Positions 28,147 through 35,135 of a DNA stretch of 64,000 nucleotides are shown here, in pieces (position 1 is the first letter of the stretch; each line of letters opens with the position of its first letter). The translations under genes were made by a program, and so were the position numbers. The notes under the pieces are model-generated. The model ran no database searches and was not told the origin of the DNA. It worked only from the letters and a program-made list of their open reading frames with translations. Location: NCBI GenBank assembly GCA_043803745.1, contig JAZDJS010000048.1:10714-74713 (forward strand). The letters are read 5' to 3'. Source of the stretch: an archaeon. GTDB taxonomy: Archaea; SpSt-1190; DYHY01.

Positions 28147-29502
28147 GTGGTGGTTCAGTTCATCGGGGAGCTGGGGCTTTCCGGAACTGAGCGGATAGAA
28201 GATGAGGCTGGGGCAAAGGAGCTCCTGGAAAAATATTACGGAGAACTCGAGATTGGGACGGAGTCTCCGGGACGCGAGGCGGTCAAGACAATGGCTCTCC
28301 TGCAGTGGGGAGCGACCGCTGCGCCTGAGGAGGCCCGGAAGATTGCGGATTGGACTGATCCAACGAGGACCGTCAGGACGGGGAACGTCGGAGTGCAGGG
28401 GCTCCTTAGGAAAGGGGATCTGACAACTTCTGCGTCCTTTGCAATGGCTGAATGGGGACCGGTCGACACTCCCGCTGGATATTCCCCGCTGAGGATAATT
28501 AAGGGTGAGCTGGAAGGGGAATTCCTTCCTTTGGGAATAATCGGGCCGGACGGAAAGGGGCTGGGAGAATTTCTTGCAAGGAGGGCGCGCAGTTGGTATG
28601 AAAAAAAGCTCCCCTCGGGAGGCTTGCTGACTGCAGCCTTCCTGGAGGAGGGGGCTTTCTCGGAAGATGGCCTTTCCGGGAACTTGATGGCAGGACTTCC
28701 ATATGCCTGTTCAGTTCAAGCCCAGGGCGGTTGTGTTTTCTGCCCCTTTGGGAAAGGGGAGACTGGAATACCGACAGCGGAGGATTTCGGCTTTGCAGCA
28801 GTTGAGGCGGTCGGGAGGAACGGCGGAAGGACGACAATTACAATAACCGCAGGGAACACTGGCAGGCCGGAGCGGGGACTGGAACGGTATTTGCCGGTTC
28901 TTTCGGAAATACGAGAGAGGCTAATTGAGGCGGGACTGAAACCGCCCCCAATACAGCTTGAAGTCTCTCCGCCCAATTGGGAAGTGCTTGGCTATCTGGG
29001 AGTTGAGGAGCTTTTCGGGAAGCTCATTGAGCTCGGCGTCACATCGCTTATGCTCAATCCCGAGATTCCCATAACGCCTGAAAACGCAAGGGAGCGGGAA
29101 GTTCGCCTAAAGTCAAAAGGCAGCATTCCGGAATCGGATTACCTCCGATCCTGGGAGCTTGCAAAGAAAATGGATCTTGGAACGGCAGGCGTCCTAATCT
29201 GGGGCCTCGGAGGAGAGGCTGCGGATTATCGGGATTTCTCCGCCCTTGAAGCATACAAATCGGGCGTTGATAAAATGGCATCAGTCGGAGCATATCCAGT
29301 CTCCCTCGCACTGAGGCCGCGGGGGGCGTTGATGGGAAAATACGCACCGCCTCCGTTGAAGGGGCAAGTCGAGCTTGTCATTTATTCGGCGAATGTGTGT
29401 GCTAAAGCGGGAATTTCCCCCCCTCCGGGCTGTTCAAAATGTTCGGCCTGCGGGCCTGACGGGGTTGCATACGACCTTGCCTTGAAGGGGGAATTGAAAT
29501 GA
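28147..29502 (+). CDS. Radical SAM enzyme with CX7CX2C motif (MSMEG_0568-like)
   Basis: CSVQAQGGCVFC, TITAG, LIWGLG, LRP.GALM and C-terminal GCSKCSAC. Confidence 0.8.
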   Translation: MVVQFIGELGLSGTERIEDEAGAKELLEKYYGELEIGTESPGREAVKTMALLQWGATAAPEEARKIADWTDPTRTVRTGNVGVQGLLRKGDLTTSASFAMAEWGPVDTPAGYSPLRIIKGELEGEFLPLGIIGPDGKGLGEFLARRARSWYEKKLPSGGLLTAAFLEEGAFSEDGLSGNLMAGLPYACSVQAQGGCVFCPFGKGETGIPTAEDFGFAAVEAVGRNGGRTTITITAGNTGRPERGLERYLPVLSEIRERLIEAGLKPPPIQLEVSPPNWEVLGYLGVEELFGKLIELGVTSLMLNPEIPITPENAREREVRLKSKGSIPESDYLRSWELAKKMDLGTAGVLIWGLGGEAADYRDFSALEAYKSGVDKMASVGAYPVSLALRPRGALMGKYAPPPLKGQVELVIYSANVCAKAGISPPPGCSKCSACGPDGVAYDLALKGELK

Positions 29503-29882
29503 AGGGAGCCGTTCCGAAAAAGCTCGGACCGTATTCCCTGGGGGCCTCTGCCAGAGGCCTCTCTCTCTTTTTTTCCTCCGGGGAGACCGGAACTGACCCG
29601 AAAACAGGGAAGCTTGAGAAAGGGATTGCAGCGCAGGCTAGACGGACTCTTGAGAATATCGAGGCAATTCTCTTGCAAAAAGGGCTCTCCCGCAGGAACG
29701 TCGTGAAGGCAACTGTCTACCTGACCGATCTCCGGAATTTCGCGGAATTCAACGGAGTATACCGCAGGTTCTTCGGGGAATCTCTCCCGGCGCGGACGTG
29801 TGTCGGGGTGAGCGAACTTGTCGGCGGGGCTTTCGTAGAGGTAGAAGTTGTCGCGTCAAGGAAGGTTGGAAGATGGGATTAA
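29499..29882 (+). CDS. ridA: RidA/YjgF enamine deaminase
   Basis: GPYS, VVKATVYL.D, FNGVY..FF, PARTCVGV, VEVE. Confidence 0.92.
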   Translation: MKGAVPKKLGPYSLGASARGLSLFFSSGETGTDPKTGKLEKGIAAQARRTLENIEAILLQKGLSRRNVVKATVYLTDLRNFAEFNGVYRRFFGESLPARTCVGVSELVGGAFVEVEVVASRKVGRWD

Positions 29883-30889
29883 TTGACCTGAGATATGGCA
29901 CTAATCCAATTCCCCTTGACAATGCGGCAATTGCAAGTATTGCTGCAGAAGCGGTGCGGAAACTGAACGAATATCCCGACCAAAGCTGCACGAAAATCAA
30001 GCGGGCAATTGCGAAAAGCCTCGGCAGGGGTTTTTCTTCCGGCAACGTCCTGGTTGGGAATGGGTTGGACTCGGTGATAAACACTATTGCCGAGTCGGTC
30101 CTCGGAGGTAGGAAGGGAAACGGCGCGGTAGCGGTGCCGTCGTTCTACGTTTTCTCGGCGGCAATGAGGAAGCTGGGGGCGCGGGTGCTGGAGTTCCCGC
30201 TTTCGGAGGGGACTTTCTCTTTGGATGTCCGTAAGTTCTCCGATGAGATGAAGCAGCGCGGCACAGACCTTTGCTTCCTCGCCAACCCCAACAATCCGAC
30301 GGGGAACCTCCTGATACAAGACAAGAGCGGCTTGCTGAAACTGGCCGGCTCCTGCAAGCTCTTGATTGTCGACGAGTGCTATTACGGCTTCTGCAAGCAG
30401 ACATTTGTCAGGGAGACGCTCGAGCTCGAAAATCTCGTCGTCCTAAGGAGCCTCTCGAAATCGTACGGCCTGGCAGGCCTGCGCCTCGGATACGCAGTCT
30501 CTCGGAAGGAGAACATAGAACGCCTTGGCAGGGTCGCCTCCGCCTGCAGGCCGTTCGACGCCGGAACAATTTCCCAGGAAATTGGCACGTGGGCAGTGGG
30601 AAGGAAGAACCGTCTCGCGGAGTTCGCGCAACTGAAAGACGATTTCCTCCGGCTGCTCAGGGATTCCTGCGGAGCAGAGGTCAGTGGCACAGAGACCTCC
30701 TTCCTTCTTCTGAAGGTCGCAGACTCGGAGGAATTCGGTAAGAGACTGGCTTTGGAAGGGGTCCTTGTCAACACCCTCGCACCCTACAAGATGGGCGAGA
30801 GATATGTGCGGATAGGGATACCTCCTCGCAGACTTTTCGCAAAGGTCGCAAAGGCTGTAGTACGGGCGACAAACAATAATAAAGGGTGA
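29873..30889 (+). CDS. HisC/CobD-like class II PLP-dependent aminotransferase
   Basis: EYPD, GNG, NPNNPTG, IVDECY, RSLSKSYGLAGLRLGY (PLP lysine). Confidence 0.9.
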   Translation: MGLIDLRYGTNPIPLDNAAIASIAAEAVRKLNEYPDQSCTKIKRAIAKSLGRGFSSGNVLVGNGLDSVINTIAESVLGGRKGNGAVAVPSFYVFSAAMRKLGARVLEFPLSEGTFSLDVRKFSDEMKQRGTDLCFLANPNNPTGNLLIQDKSGLLKLAGSCKLLIVDECYYGFCKQTFVRETLELENLVVLRSLSKSYGLAGLRLGYAVSRKENIERLGRVASACRPFDAGTISQEIGTWAVGRKNRLAEFAQLKDDFLRLLRDSCGAEVSGTETSFLLLKVADSEEFGKRLALEGVLVNTLAPYKMGERYVRIGIPPRRLFAKVAKAVVRATNNNKG

Positions 30890-30908
30890 GGAAAAAGTGA
30901 ACAGAAAA

Positions 30909-32699
30909 ATGGCGAACGATTCATTCCAGCCCCCGAGGGGGACGCGCGACCTCCTCCCGAAGGAGCTTTCGGTGAGGAACAGGATTTGCGAAATACTTTC
31001 CGGGACTGCCGAAACGTACGGCTTTGGGCCGATAGACACCCCGGTTTTCGAGAATTTCGACTTCCTTGCGAAAAAGTCCGGGCCCGAGGTGAAGGAGCAG
31101 ATATACTATTTCAAGGACAAGGCGGGGCGCGAGCTCGGGCTCAGGTTTGATTTCACCGTCCCCATTGCAAGGCTTGTCATGAACAACCCCCAGCTGCCGA
31201 AACCTCTCCGGCTTTACGTCCTTGACAAGGCATGGAGATATGAGGAAATCTCGGCAGGCAGGTTCAGGGAGTTCTCCCAGTTGGACGTCGAGATACTCGG
31301 CTCGAAAGAGCTTATTGTCGATGCCGAGACAATCGCCGTCGGCGTCGCCCTCCTGACCGTTTTCGGGATCCCGAAAATAAAGGTGAAGATAAACAACAGG
31401 GAAATCCTTGACGGCTTTGCCAAAAGCATCGGGATTTCCGAGGGCTCTGCTCGGGACGATTTCTTCAGGACAATTGACAAAAGGGAGAAGCTTTCCGAAT
31501 CGGCGTTCCGGGAGGCGCTCGGGAAGCTGGGGCTTTCCGAGGAAACCGCAGGGCAGGTTTCGGAATATTGCGGCCTTTCCGGAGAGGCCGGGGATGTGAT
31601 CAAGCGGGCTGAAAAGCTGCTCAACCAGAATTCCTTGATTTCCGGCGGGATCGAGAAGCTGAAGAAACTTTTCAGCCTCCTCAAGAATTACGGGGTTGAG
31701 AAATACTGCGAGCTTGACCTCTCGATTGCAAGGGGGCTGGATTATTACACTGGCATCATCTTCGAGGTCAAGGCGGGGAACTACGGGCTTTCGATTATCG
31801 GCGGCGGCAGATATGACAAGCTCATCGGGCTTTACTCGGGAGAGGAAATGCCTGCGACCGGCTTTGCAATGGGCATTGACCGGCTTTACGAGCTTCTTGG
31901 GAAGGAAGGGCGGCTGCCGGCATCGGGCTCGGGAAGCAAGGCGCTCGTGGTTCCGATCGGGGAACCCGCGCTTCCAAAGGCAATCGAGCTTGTCCAGGGA
32001 ATCAGGCTTGCCGGGGTCAACTCGGAAATAGACGTCATGGGGCGGAGCGTTGGGAAGAACCTCGAGTTCGCCGACAAGGCGAAGATGCCTTTTGCGGTAA
32101 TCGTCGGGGAGAAGGAGCTTTCGGCGCGCAAGGCAACGGTGAAGGATCTCCGGACCGGGGAAAGCGAGGCTGTGGATTTCGCGCAAGTCCCTTTCTACAT
32201 CGCCGGGAAACTGAGCAGGGATTTCGAGGTTCCGGGCAAGTCCGAAGAGAAAACTTCTGCAATCGCGGGTTCGGGGGATTTCAAGGCGCGCCTCCACACG
32301 GCAGACCACATCCTTACGGGCGTTCTTGGTCAGCTTGCAAAGGGCTTCGAGGAACGGGCGCTGGAATTTGCGGAAACCCACTGCAGGTGGGATTGCGTCT
32401 CGGATGACGACTTGAGGAAGCTGAAGGCGGAAATCGAGAAAAGCGTGAACGAGATTATTTCTCGGAATCTGCAGGTTTCGCAAAAGGAGATTCCGAGGGC
32501 CGAAGCTGAGGAAAAATTCGGTAAGCTCAGGGCCCCAAAGGAGCTTGAGGAAATAACCGTCTACGAAATAGCCGGCTTCAACGAGCTTCCTTGCGGAGGC
32601 CCCCACGTCCGAAGCACGGCGCAGGTCGGCAAGTTCAAAATCCTGAAAATTGAGAAGAAAGGGGCGAAAGCCTGGTCGATAAGGTATACTGTTGAATAA
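30909..32699 (+). CDS. hisS: Histidyl-tRNA synthetase with a C-terminal AlaX/tRNA_SAD editing-like domain
   Basis: PRGTRD, LRFDFT, GRFREFSQ, RGLDYYTG, GGGRYD, GFAMGIDRL and anticodon domain, then LHTADHIL and LPCGGPHV in the same frame. Confidence 0.95.
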   Translation: MANDSFQPPRGTRDLLPKELSVRNRICEILSGTAETYGFGPIDTPVFENFDFLAKKSGPEVKEQIYYFKDKAGRELGLRFDFTVPIARLVMNNPQLPKPLRLYVLDKAWRYEEISAGRFREFSQLDVEILGSKELIVDAETIAVGVALLTVFGIPKIKVKINNREILDGFAKSIGISEGSARDDFFRTIDKREKLSESAFREALGKLGLSEETAGQVSEYCGLSGEAGDVIKRAEKLLNQNSLISGGIEKLKKLFSLLKNYGVEKYCELDLSIARGLDYYTGIIFEVKAGNYGLSIIGGGRYDKLIGLYSGEEMPATGFAMGIDRLYELLGKEGRLPASGSGSKALVVPIGEPALPKAIELVQGIRLAGVNSEIDVMGRSVGKNLEFADKAKMPFAVIVGEKELSARKATVKDLRTGESEAVDFAQVPFYIAGKLSRDFEVPGKSEEKTSAIAGSGDFKARLHTADHILTGVLGQLAKGFEERALEFAETHCRWDCVSDDDLRKLKAEIEKSVNEIISRNLQVSQKEIPRAEAEEKFGKLRAPKELEEITVYEIAGFNELPCGGPHVRSTAQVGKFKILKIEKKGAKAWSIRYTVE

Positions 32700-32742
32700 C
32701 TGCAACAAAAAGAATAAAAGCAAGCGCCGTCTGCCCTGGGCG

Positions 32743-33522
32743 ATGGAACTTGTCAAGCTATTCCGGAACATAAAGGAGAATTTCTTTTTCTCGGCGGTTT
32801 TCCTTGCAACCCTCGTCGGGGGCATCCTTGCAATGATCTACAAGCCGCTCCTTCCCGAAGTCGAAATCCTGAAGGGCACGTTCTGGCTTTTCGGCCTTTC
32901 CCTCCAGGCAACGGTGATAATCTTGTGGATAGGGGGCTACCTGCTCTACAGATGGAACCTCGGGAAAAGAAAGAACAGCACCCAGCTTGTCTGGGGGGTT
33001 TCATTCCTGCTCTACTCAGTTGTCTTCATTGGGATGGCCCTGCAGGCCCTTGGATTTGGGTTCGCTGACGCCAAACTCCCCTGGATTTTCTTCGTTTACA
33101 GGCAGTTCATGATCTTGTGGCTTGCCGGAATTTATTGGGGGCTTGCCGGAATTGTTTTCGCAAAGGAGAACAGACTTGCCCGGATTCTGCCGACGGCGGC
33201 AATACTCCTCATTGGCTATGGGATTTTCGCAAACGGGCTCTTCATTGTCAAGGATGTGGAGTACACGATGTACAGCTTCCTTTACCTGCTGTTCGTTCCG
33301 GTGTGCTTCATCCTTTCCCGGATTTTCTGGAAATATGCCCAGCTTGCCTCGGCAACCTTCGCAAGATACCTTTCAATCGGCTTTGCGGGCATCGGCATAA
33401 CATATCTTGCATGGGCGCCCTGGCACAAGACAACCTTCTATTTCGTCTGGTTTTTCCTGTATGTCCTTTCGCTGATTCCGCTTCTTGTCGGCTTCCTTGG
33501 CGCGGGGCAGAAGAGCACTTAG
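32743..33522 (+). CDS. Polytopic (about 7-8 TM) sensor-like membrane protein without a cytoplasmic output domain
   Basis: Continuous TM helices; the ORF ends right after the last TM. Confidence 0.75.
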   Translation: MELVKLFRNIKENFFFSAVFLATLVGGILAMIYKPLLPEVEILKGTFWLFGLSLQATVIILWIGGYLLYRWNLGKRKNSTQLVWGVSFLLYSVVFIGMALQALGFGFADAKLPWIFFVYRQFMILWLAGIYWGLAGIVFAKENRLARILPTAAILLIGYGIFANGLFIVKDVEYTMYSFLYLLFVPVCFILSRIFWKYAQLASATFARYLSIGFAGIGITYLAWAPWHKTTFYFVWFFLYVLSLIPLLVGFLGAGQKST

Positions 33523-33534
33523 GGGGGTTTCAGA

Positions 33535-33864
33535 GTGGGTTCCGTCGAAAATAAAATCGCTTATGAGCTGATTGAGAAAGCGAAATCGACGATAGGCGGG
33601 ACTGCGCTGACAATTGCCGAATCGGAAGGCCTGAAGATATCTAAGGGTTCCGTTGAAACCGAACGGACCGGATACCTGGAAAAGCTTGTGGAAGCTTTCA
33701 AGAGGATAATAGGTCCTGTTGCGAAAAATTTTGCAATCCAGGGGGCGCAGGCAGCCCTGGCCGGATTTGAAAAGCCCGAGATTGACCGGGAACTCCCGAA
33801 CCTTCCGGAGTGGGCAAGGCCGTCTGTTGCAGCCAAGCTTTCCGGGTTTTTCGGAGAGTTCTGA
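33535..33864 (+). CDS. Small helical protein with an internal (S/R)(T/I)IG(G/P).A repeat
   Basis: KSTIGGTA / KRIIGPVA duplicated motif; 12 bp after the membrane gene. Confidence 0.7.
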   Translation: MGSVENKIAYELIEKAKSTIGGTALTIAESEGLKISKGSVETERTGYLEKLVEAFKRIIGPVAKNFAIQGAQAALAGFEKPEIDRELPNLPEWARPSVAAKLSGFFGEF

Positions 33865-33926
33865 TTCCCGACTCCTGAATCCCCCGGAAAAAGGATTAAA
33901 AAAGGGGCGCGCGAGCGCGCTTTCCA

Positions 33927-35135
33927 ATGGAAAGCAAGAAGCTGCGGGAGAAGGTTCTCGTATCCCTGAACATCTTCCTCCAGCTCTTGGGGCATTCCCT
34001 TTACGGGGTTTTCATCCCGATTTTCCTTCTGAAGGAGGGCGCAACCCTTCCGGAGGTTTTCATTTACGGGGCAATGGACGGTCTCGGAACCCTCGGGGGG
34101 GCTCTTGTCGGCCCGGCGGCAGTCAAAAAGTTCGGGGTGAAATTCCCGCTCGTTTTCAGGGCGCTCTTCCAACCGCTCTGGGTTGTCGGGCTTTTGAACC
34201 ATGGAAAGCTTCCTTTCCCTCTTCCGGCATATGGGTTCGTTTTCGGGGCGTTCACTTCAGTCTACTGGCTTGCGATAAACGCATACACGATTGAGGCAAG
34301 CAGCAAGAAGGAAAGGGGCCTCTTCTCGGGAATTTCCTCCGCAATGGTCTGGATTGCATCCATAATAGCGCCGCTGATAGGCGCGTTCATAATCGGGAAG
34401 TTCGGATATTCGGCCGTCTTCAGCCTGGCAATTGCGGTAATTCTCCTCGCGCTTGTCCCCGCCCTTCTTCTCCCGAGGCTGCGGCTTCTGGACGGGGCGC
34501 AAACCCGGACGATTCCGAAGAAGGGCGGCGGAACTGGGCGGCGGAACGAGATCCTCGGGGCATTTCTCCTTATGTATGCGATACTCGGCGTCGGCGGACT
34601 TGCGACATATTACGCATGGCCGCTTTATCTTTACTCGGTCTTCGGGGGGGAACTCCAGATAGGCCTCCTTGCATCGCTAGGTTCCTTCTTCGGCCTTGCT
34701 GGCGCGCTCTTCGGGGGCTGGTTCGCCGACAAGATGAGCAAGACCCGGCTTGTCGCAGCGTCTGGCAGCGTCCTCTTCTTCAGCTGGGTTCTCTCGGCAG
34801 CGTTCACAAGCGCGCTGGCGCTCTCGATTGTCGTTTCTTTCCGGAGATTCGCTGACGAAGTCACCGGAAACGCGCTTTTCGCCAAGTTCGGGAACCTTTT
34901 CGCGCGGGACAACCTGATCATCCGGATAGCCCAGAAACATTTCGCTCTCGGAGCGGGCCTTGCTCTTGCGGGCGCTTTGGCCTGCTTCGTCTCAATCAGG
35001 ACTTTTTTCGTTCTTGTCGGAATCCTCTTCCTCGTCTATGCCGCAGCAATCTCGGGCACGGTCTTCCGGACGGGGAGAAAGCTCGCGCTCCCCAGGGGAA
35101 TGCTGATTTTCCTTGAGCGATTTTACCAGAACTAG
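33927..35135 (+). CDS. MFS transporter
   Basis: 12 TM helices; KKERG, IAPLIGAFII and GGWFADKMSK motifs. Confidence 0.9.
   Translation: MESKKLREKVLVSLNIFLQLLGHSLYGVFIPIFLLKEGATLPEVFIYGAMDGLGTLGGALVGPAAVKKFGVKFPLVFRALFQPLWVVGLLNHGKLPFPLPAYGFVFGAFTSVYWLAINAYTIEASSKKERGLFSGISSAMVWIASIIAPLIGAFIIGKFGYSAVFSLAIAVILLALVPALLLPRLRLLDGAQTRTIPKKGGGTGRRNEILGAFLLMYAILGVGGLATYYAWPLYLYSVFGGELQIGLLASLGSFFGLAGALFGGWFADKMSKTRLVAASGSVLFFSWVLSAAFTSALALSIVVSFRRFADEVTGNALFAKFGNLFARDNLIIRIAQKHFALGAGLALAGALACFVSIRTFFVLVGILFLVYAAAISGTVFRTGRKLALPRGMLIFLERFYQN

Follow-up and report, generated by a model that had tools for sequence, protein, structure and literature searches.

Editing modules on synthetases and the structure of the fusion gene

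The described proteins closest to the element reported here are those of the AlaX-S (type I AlaXp) group, such as PH0574 of Pyrococcus horikoshii (PDB 1V4P, 1WXO, 1V7O and 1WNU), a chain of ~140 amino acids (aa) with the motifs HXXXH and CXGXH and with neither the N-terminal barrel of AlaX-M nor the C-Ala domain of AlaX-L. Parts of the translation machinery have also been coupled genetically to histidine biosynthesis in the HisZ-HisG system, in which the regulatory subunit HisZ is a paralogue of histidyl-tRNA synthetase (HisRS) that has been drawn into the his operon and lacks the anticodon-binding domain. A homologous domain with the motifs of AlaX-S performs post-transfer editing in cis on two class II enzymes, the alanyl- and threonyl-tRNA synthetases (AlaRS and ThrRS; 'Edit-AT' in AARS Online, PMC11580382). 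There it is universal and ancient, and the misactivated amino acids (Ser, Gly) are known. The HisRS entry of its domain table contains HGPT anticodon-binding and WHEP domains and no editing domain. The apicomplexan tryptophanyl-tRNA synthetase (TrpRS; Pf-WRS in Plasmodium) carries an AlaX-S-like module on a linker, even though this synthetase is neither AlaRS nor ThrRS and no mischarging by it is known; its four zinc ligands have changed to D, S, N and V, and tRNA binding is the role proposed for the domain (PMC3680381). In this study we analyzed a window of 64,000 nucleotides from a 74.7-kb contig of an archaeon (JAZDJS010000048.1, assembly GCA_043803745.1, in the following G000), in which a hisS::alaXS gene encodes HisRS followed in frame by an AlaX-S-type module.

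Several features set this arrangement apart from the systems above. The module shares the fold of PH0574 over the whole chain as well as both motifs, and likewise lacks the AlaX-M barrel and C-Ala, but it is only 23-25% identical to PH0574, is fused to HisRS, belongs to a separate clade associated with his operons and HisRS, and its activity is predicted. Compared with the editing domains of AlaRS and ThrRS, the module was joined to its host synthetase recently, in one lineage and through a flexible linker. Unlike in Pf-WRS, the module is C-terminal, the host synthetase is a prokaryotic class II HisRS, and all four zinc ligands (H, H, C, H) are intact. The difference from HisZ is that the HisRS of the window appears from its sequence to be a true synthetase, with a hydrolase of the editing type as its coupled partner.

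The fusion gene appears to be real and to encode a single polypeptide consisting of HisRS, a flexible linker and a whole AlaX-S-type hydrolase module (Table 1). An initial annotation, prepared from the DNA letters alone, had proposed that the reading frame continues past the anticodon domain through HTADH and CGGPH, and both motifs were found exactly where it had placed them, in an extension of 165 aa. The frame is unbroken over its entire length, with no stop and no frame change, and the protein ends in ...EKKGAKAWSIRYTVE. An alternative start at ATG 30909 gives the 596-aa form present in the database (P0002). Since no in-frame ATG, GTG or TTG was detected within 32173-32400, translation cannot begin separately at the module, which can be made only as part of HisRS. 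Similarity to the HisRS of the same genus stops in the linker, and the first residues of the structural model described below have low confidence. The Pfam tRNA_SAD model matched residues 553-590 with 41.2 bits (cut-off 24).

The same annotation had identified the synthetase part as HisRS and the extension as an intact AlaX-type module, and this assignment held. The NCBIfam hisS equivalog TIGR00442 scored 383.7 bits on the whole protein and passed its cut-off of 286.75, and the hisZ model, at 236.5 bits, stayed under its cut-off of 271.65. In an alignment of 35 HisRS sequences, the fusion conforms to each of the 51 invariant columns, and the best named HisRS matches are archaeal (Aenigmatarchaeota, Nezhaarchaeota and Parvarchaeota, ~40-43% identity), so we describe the organism simply as an archaeon with a small genome. 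The genome (1.23 Mb in 51 contigs, 90% completeness) contains a single PF13393 match, which makes the fusion its sole HisRS, and its tRNAHis(GUG) is normal, with an encoded G-1, C73 and CCA. From these sequence comparisons, the HisRS part is a true synthetase and the housekeeping histidyl-tRNA synthetase of the organism.

The module was modelled with AlphaFold (residues 455-600, on a 41-sequence alignment) at a mean predicted local distance difference test score (pLDDT) of 95.6 and a predicted template modelling score (pTM) of 0.89. In a Foldseek comparison with the PDB, the model matched the AlaRS editing domain of P. horikoshii (2zzf, 2zzg, 2zze) with template modelling (TM) scores of 0.82-0.84 (E ~1e-12) and the AlaX-S structures 1v4p, 1v7o and 1wnu with a query score (TMq) of 0.81 and a target score (TMt) of 0.77-0.78, so that the whole chains of module and free AlaX-S superpose. 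The E values for AlaRS editing domains and AlaX-S spanned 1e-12 to 8e-12, and the N2 domains of ThrRS scored lower. A profile of the clade to which the module belongs aligned with residues 7-149 of the 157 in 1v4p. The AlaXM model NF040865 covered fusion residues 465-599 (E 8.4e-22) through the C-terminal 138 model positions only (96-233 of 234) and, with 78 bits against a cut-off of 300, did not reach the AlaX-M equivalog; the module thus corresponds to the editing core without the N-terminal barrel and is not an AlaX-M. Accordingly, it aligned end to end with free proteins of 138-145 aa, with no AlaX-M N-terminal domain and no C-Ala/DHHA1, and its first residue F462 aligned with their initiator Met (FKARLHTADH and MKERLHTADH). 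It departs from AlaX-S as a class in that it is not free-standing. With the motifs defined as in PMC12003907, the C and H of CXGXH are invariant in a 22-sequence alignment of the clade.

Table 1. Positions of the fusion gene, its parts and surrounding features (window coordinates unless contigs are named).
Feature	Position	Strand	Details
hisS::alaXS fusion gene	30897..32699	+	600 aa from GTG 30897; stop TAA 32697-32699
HisRS class II catalytic domain, residues 15-330	30939..31886	+	Pfam PF13393 tRNA-synt_His, 187.7 bits
HGTP anticodon-binding domain, residues 348-435	31938..32201	+	Pfam PF03129 HGTP_anticodon, 55 bits
Linker, 26 aa, residues 436-461, KLSRDFEVPGKSEEKTSAIAGSGD plus flanks	32202..32279	+	
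AlaX-S-type module, complete, 139 aa, residues 462-600	32280..32696	+	alignments, AlphaFold model, Foldseek
HTADH (HXXXH motif), H467 and H471	32295..32309	+	
CGGPH (CXGXH motif), C566 and H570	32592..32606	+	
Stretch without nucleotide counterpart in same-genus G001	32121..33924	.	blastn
Class I/II aminotransferase, directly 5' of hisS	29798..30889	+	best NCBIfam model hisC, 175.7 bits, below cut-off of 276.55
Open reading frame without Pfam match, 276 aa	32692-33522		membrane-like by eye
Open reading frame without Pfam match, 109 aa	33535-33864		
tRNA_SAD frames of G000 (loci L001-L007)	contigs C44, C21, C19 (two places), C43, C1		

Acquisition by one lineage and recurrence of the fusion

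HisRS was present in all 41 related genomes compared, and a match over query residues 1-600 was obtained in G000 only. The HisRS of the same-genus genome G001 (456 aa, 69% identity over residues 8-441) ends in ...GKLNSPEPEDSYSKVPEEGN and has no module. In G001, hisS is followed by the orthologue of the major facilitator superfamily transporter located at 33927-35135 of the window, and G003, of the same family, has the same order. Alignment of G001 with the window by blastn gave blocks at 30921-32120 and 33925-35119, leaving ~1.55 kb extra in G000 that comprises the hisS tail and linker, the AlaX-S module and the two open reading frames without Pfam matches, which may have arrived together with the module. 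When the clade profile was searched against 17 genomes of the host phylum, the module type was found in one, G000 itself (170 bits), and a single-sequence search agreed; the next match was a 241-aa frame of AlaX-M size (96 bits). The module is thus a recent acquisition of this lineage alone. Its DNA is not obviously foreign by composition, as the GC content at third codon positions is 0.657 in the module and 0.55-0.73 in neighbouring genes.

These comparisons also bear on an artefact, in which a misassembly or sequencing error would have erased the stop between hisS and a separate alaXS gene. In favour of such an error, the fusion is known from one assembly and is unique within its phylum, but the contig is syntenic with G001 on both sides and its composition is like that of the neighbours, a separate module would have no start codon, and three other public proteins from other lineages pair HisRS with AlaX-S. 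We consider an artefact very improbable indeed.

Further differences were observed around hisS in this group of genomes. In the window, the aminotransferase and hisS lie behind a RidA/L-PSP gene and a radical-SAM-like gene, the latter recognised by a weak NCBIfam match only (28147-29882). G001 has a related gene of 410 aa immediately next to hisS, and the RidA and aminotransferase genes are therefore also extra in G000. The hisS of G003 (locus L011, contig C21) is split into two overlapping frames of 405 aa and 97 aa by a frameshift or an assembly error. A 587-aa open frame around hisS on contig C14 of G016 was considered as a second fusion and rejected, as it had no AlaX match at E <= 1e-8.

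A HMMER search with residues 400-600 against 1.84 billion representatives returned 1135 matches at E <= 1e-3, including 31 at E <= 1e-10. The best non-self matches were the free 138-145-aa proteins P0141, P0142, P0143 and P0144, with P0141 in first place (44% identity, 105.9 bits). Of 150 matches listed, 64 had at least 280 aa and were scanned with Pfam, the remaining 86 being too short for a HisRS. P0145 (608 aa), with an N-terminal AlaX-S followed by HisRS, was the sole HisRS-bearing protein among the 64, and no HisRS domain was detected by Pfam in the other 63 of these listed matches. In word-based searches, two of the 120 matches listed from 5.8 billion clusters carried both domains, namely P0021 (587 aa) and the protein of the window, and P0290 (585 aa), named 'histidyl-tRNA synthetase' by JGI, was likewise one of two among the 120 matches listed. 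The initial annotation had known of no described example of such a protein. This stands for the literature, in which full-text searches returned neither a HisRS-AlaX fusion nor an AlaX in his operons (subscription journals and supplements were outside the coverage), and does not stand for public sequence collections, where P0021, P0145 and P0290 show the architecture, unnamed or as 'histidyl-tRNA synthetase'.

P0021, P0145 and P0290 combine the same two partners, with modules of the same AlaX-S clade, but carry the module at the opposite, N-terminal end of HisRS, and each has a different free-standing nearest relative. The HisRS bodies of the fusions are mutually 30-43% identical. The module of P0021 is 36% identical to that of the window (96.7 bits), a higher score than that of any AlaRS or AlaX match, the best of which reached 64 bits. 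In place of the first His of HXXXH, P0021 carries Q and P0290 carries E, and P0145 has HTAEH.

When 31 module sequences were analyzed with IQ-TREE on an alignment of 144 columns, the window module was placed in a 10-row clade (support 99/96) of free proteins that includes three encoded in his operons, P0145 was paired with the free P0144 (100/99), and P0021 fell into a third group (80/94). A quick tree paired P0290 with the free P0146 (SH-aLRT 93). A tree in which the three fused forms group together was rejected by the approximately unbiased test (p 0.00026, with a log-likelihood difference of 64.5), for a group named after the first quick tree had been seen and on a short alignment with a weakly supported backbone. 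Taken together, the placements and this rejection indicate, at the level of sequence, at least three independent fusion events, of which one placed the module at the C-terminus of HisRS and two or more placed it at the N-terminus. P0021 and P0290 may go back to one shared event or to two.

The clade consists of small proteins and is rare and horizontally scattered. Among 401 sampled genomes of the phylum of G043, a member of the clade was found in one, G043 itself, on which the search was centred. Among 301 sampled genomes of the phylum of G041, two reached clade-level scores (G041 itself and G525, in which no his genes were found within 1.5 kb of the clade member), and the other eight matches, at 99-111 bits, were frames of AlaX-M size.

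Histidine genes beside free-standing relatives

The neighbourhood sample was small, with ten readable loci of the clade and a locus search on a 4-sequence alignment that gave 8 + 4 relatives. Complete or partial his operons were present at three of the ten loci. In Peregrinibacteria (L059), the order is TrpR-like repressor, hisG, hisC, hisD, hisB (imidazoleglycerol-phosphate dehydratase), hisH, hisA-F, hisIE and alaXS. In Magasanikiibacteria (L060), it is TrpR-like repressor, alaXS, hisG (short form), hisD, hisC, HAD phosphatase, hisB, hisH, hisA-F and hisIE. A metagenome contig (L055) has hisF, hisIE, alaXS, hisD and hisS. Counting these three operons and the four HisRS fusions, seven of the 13 clade members with context information are tied to his genes or HisRS. 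The initial annotation had left a choice between HisRS with cis proofreading and a trans-editing AlaX carried on HisRS; the his-operon neighbours of the free relatives favour a histidine-specific over a general role.

The remaining loci were more varied. At three archaeal-looking metagenome loci (L056, L057 and L058), genes next to alaXS encode an ACT-domain protein, a regulator of the Lrp/AsnC type, an aminotransferase or a prephenate dehydrogenase. No related genes were found within reach of alaXS at L047, L050 and L083. The tenth locus is the window itself, where the 5' neighbour is the hisC-like aminotransferase that scored under the cut-off.

A few additional observations concern the same loci. 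The two operons of the Candidate Phyla Radiation (L059 and L060) both begin with the TrpR-like repressor gene (L059:11482-11967 and L060:14732-15010, both on the minus strand), and in both hisA and hisF form one fused gene of ~500 aa. The hisS of L055 has a lone in-frame TAA (L055:3053-3055) exactly where class II motif 2 has its invariant Gln (REFW*CD); recoding, a pseudogene or an error in sequencing could account for it. A diphthamide-synthase-like gene also occurs around alaXS at L056-L058, in a recurring context of amino-acid metabolism that is not a his operon.

Proximity to his genes could also mean that the module is a small-molecule hydrolase of histidine metabolism, for instance a stand-in for histidinol-phosphate phosphatase, that was fused through operon proximity. 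The Peregrinibacteria operon, which closes with alaXS, encodes every his step apart from a histidinol-phosphate phosphatase that could be recognised; both the HisB-N and the PHP-type models remained under their cut-offs in that genome, and hisD was present in all four checked genomes with free relatives. However, the Magasanikiibacteria operon has alaXS together with a HisB-N-type phosphatase (173.2 bits, cut-off 140), and the fold and motifs of the module are those of an aminoacyl-ester hydrolase. Moreover, neither hisD nor hisF was found in G000 by family searches with controls positive in 14 of 14 genomes, in agreement with tblastn, and hisD was detected in none of the 17 genomes of the host phylum, so that there is no biosynthetic pathway for the module to serve here. 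A biosynthetic role in the host phylum is therefore unlikely, and we regard a metabolic hydrolase as a very unlikely account of the module as a whole.

Possible roles of the module on HisRS

The initial annotation had also suggested checking whether AlaRS and ThrRS of this genome lack editing domains. This turned out not to be the case, as both retain their motifs (HTATH and CSGPH in AlaRS, HSTSH and CRGPH in ThrRS). The module is thus not replacing a lost editor, and this explanation was discarded. Altogether seven frames of G000 bear tRNA_SAD, comprising ThrRS, a short AlaRS, the HisRS fusion and four further AlaX paralogues (one AlaX-L and three of AlaX-M size). Two of the AlaX-M-size frames have both motifs, and the one on C1 has HTTAH without CxxxH. 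The short AlaRS stops ~30 aa past CSGPH and has no C-Ala domain. One AlaX-M-size gene (L006, contig C43) adjoins a 481-aa frame that by eye resembles a form III RuBisCO large subunit.

This inventory affects the idea that HisRS is a mere carrier without a role in histidine decoding, on which the module clears Ser-tRNAAla and Ser-tRNAThr as a general trans-editing factor. Motifs and fold are the same as in AlaX-S, the flexible linker would permit action in trans, and AlaX-S of P. horikoshii clears both of these substrates and is described as not tRNA-specific (PMC11260482). Yet a further general editor seems redundant in a genome whose AlaRS and ThrRS look competent for editing and which also encodes an AlaX-L and three paralogues of AlaX-M size, and a neutral carrier leaves the at least three independent HisRS fusions and the three his-operon locations unexplained. 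We judge such a general editor to be unlikely.

Alternatively, the module could be a non-catalytic appendage that helps HisRS to bind tRNAHis. The N-terminal AlaX-like domain of Plasmodium TrpRS is required for tRNA binding and aminoacylation (PMC3680381), and the replacement of the first His by Q or E in two N-terminal HisRS fusions would suit an appendage of this kind. Nevertheless, the same source describes the Plasmodium domain as devoid of all four zinc ligands, which are kept in the fused module, and CXGXH retains its C and H throughout the 22-sequence alignment of the clade. Furthermore, the 140-aa relatives encoded in his operons are free proteins, with no attached synthetase that they could help, and the HisRS of the same genus works without a module. 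A purely tRNA-binding role is, in our assessment, distinctly unlikely.

We favour a role as an aminoacyl-tRNA deacylase that is tethered to HisRS and acts together with it and tRNAHis, a proposal that we regard as evenly balanced between right and wrong. The module would have been inserted behind hisS with loss of the stop codon, and it would cleave the aminoacyl ester of mischarged tRNA at the CCA terminus, in the manner of AlaX-S on Ser-tRNA. The tether to dimeric HisRS would present it with tRNAHis, and HisRS would in this way gain post-transfer proofreading. Since the free forms are co-transcribed with his genes, the activity may be needed when histidine runs low and near-cognate amino acids may compete better; in an auxotroph such as this archaeon, the need for the module may be permanent.

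Extended to the whole clade, this proposal is more tentative and, in our view, has somewhat less than an even chance of being correct. The AlaX-S-type clade would then provide dedicated proofreading for histidine decoding, clearing mis-acylated tRNAHis or otherwise controlling His-tRNAHis, and it would be expressed with the his operon at low histidine and hard-wired onto HisRS in several tiny-genome archaea and bacteria.

A number of points weigh against the favoured role as a tethered deacylase. The HisRS-AlaX junction rests on a single assembly, and a relative of the same genus lives without the module. The end branch of the module is the longest in its clade (0.95, median 0.6), which could reflect relaxed constraint. 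The module has Glu at the position of Thr30 of P. horikoshii AlaX-S, a residue presumed to have a role in that enzyme, in a variable stretch where the alignment is uncertain. At six of the ten loci with readable neighbours, no complete his genes lie beside the module. With Q or E as the first His in two N-terminal fusions, catalysis may not be the conserved feature. To our knowledge, HisRS is known neither to misacylate nor to edit, and we know of no plausible non-cognate substrate. No HisRS mischarging was on record in the literature searched. Finally, the domain table of AARS Online (PMC11580382) assigns an AlaX-type editing domain to no synthetases other than AlaRS and ThrRS.

The architecture is real-looking, rare and recurrent, and its link to histidine is unexplained but consistent. 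The fused module together with the relatives in his operons points to an undescribed quality-control function linked to histidine. HisRS has been treated as a synthetase that needs no proofreading, and an intact AlaX-type hydrolase has been joined to it at least three times, at either end. Recurrent fusions as well as free relatives in his operons suggest an undescribed error or regulatory step in histidine decoding. If dedicated histidine proofreading is true, HisRS would join the editing synthetases. The fusion also illustrates how quality-control modules of translation are reshuffled in ultra-small genomes through horizontal transfer and gene fusion.

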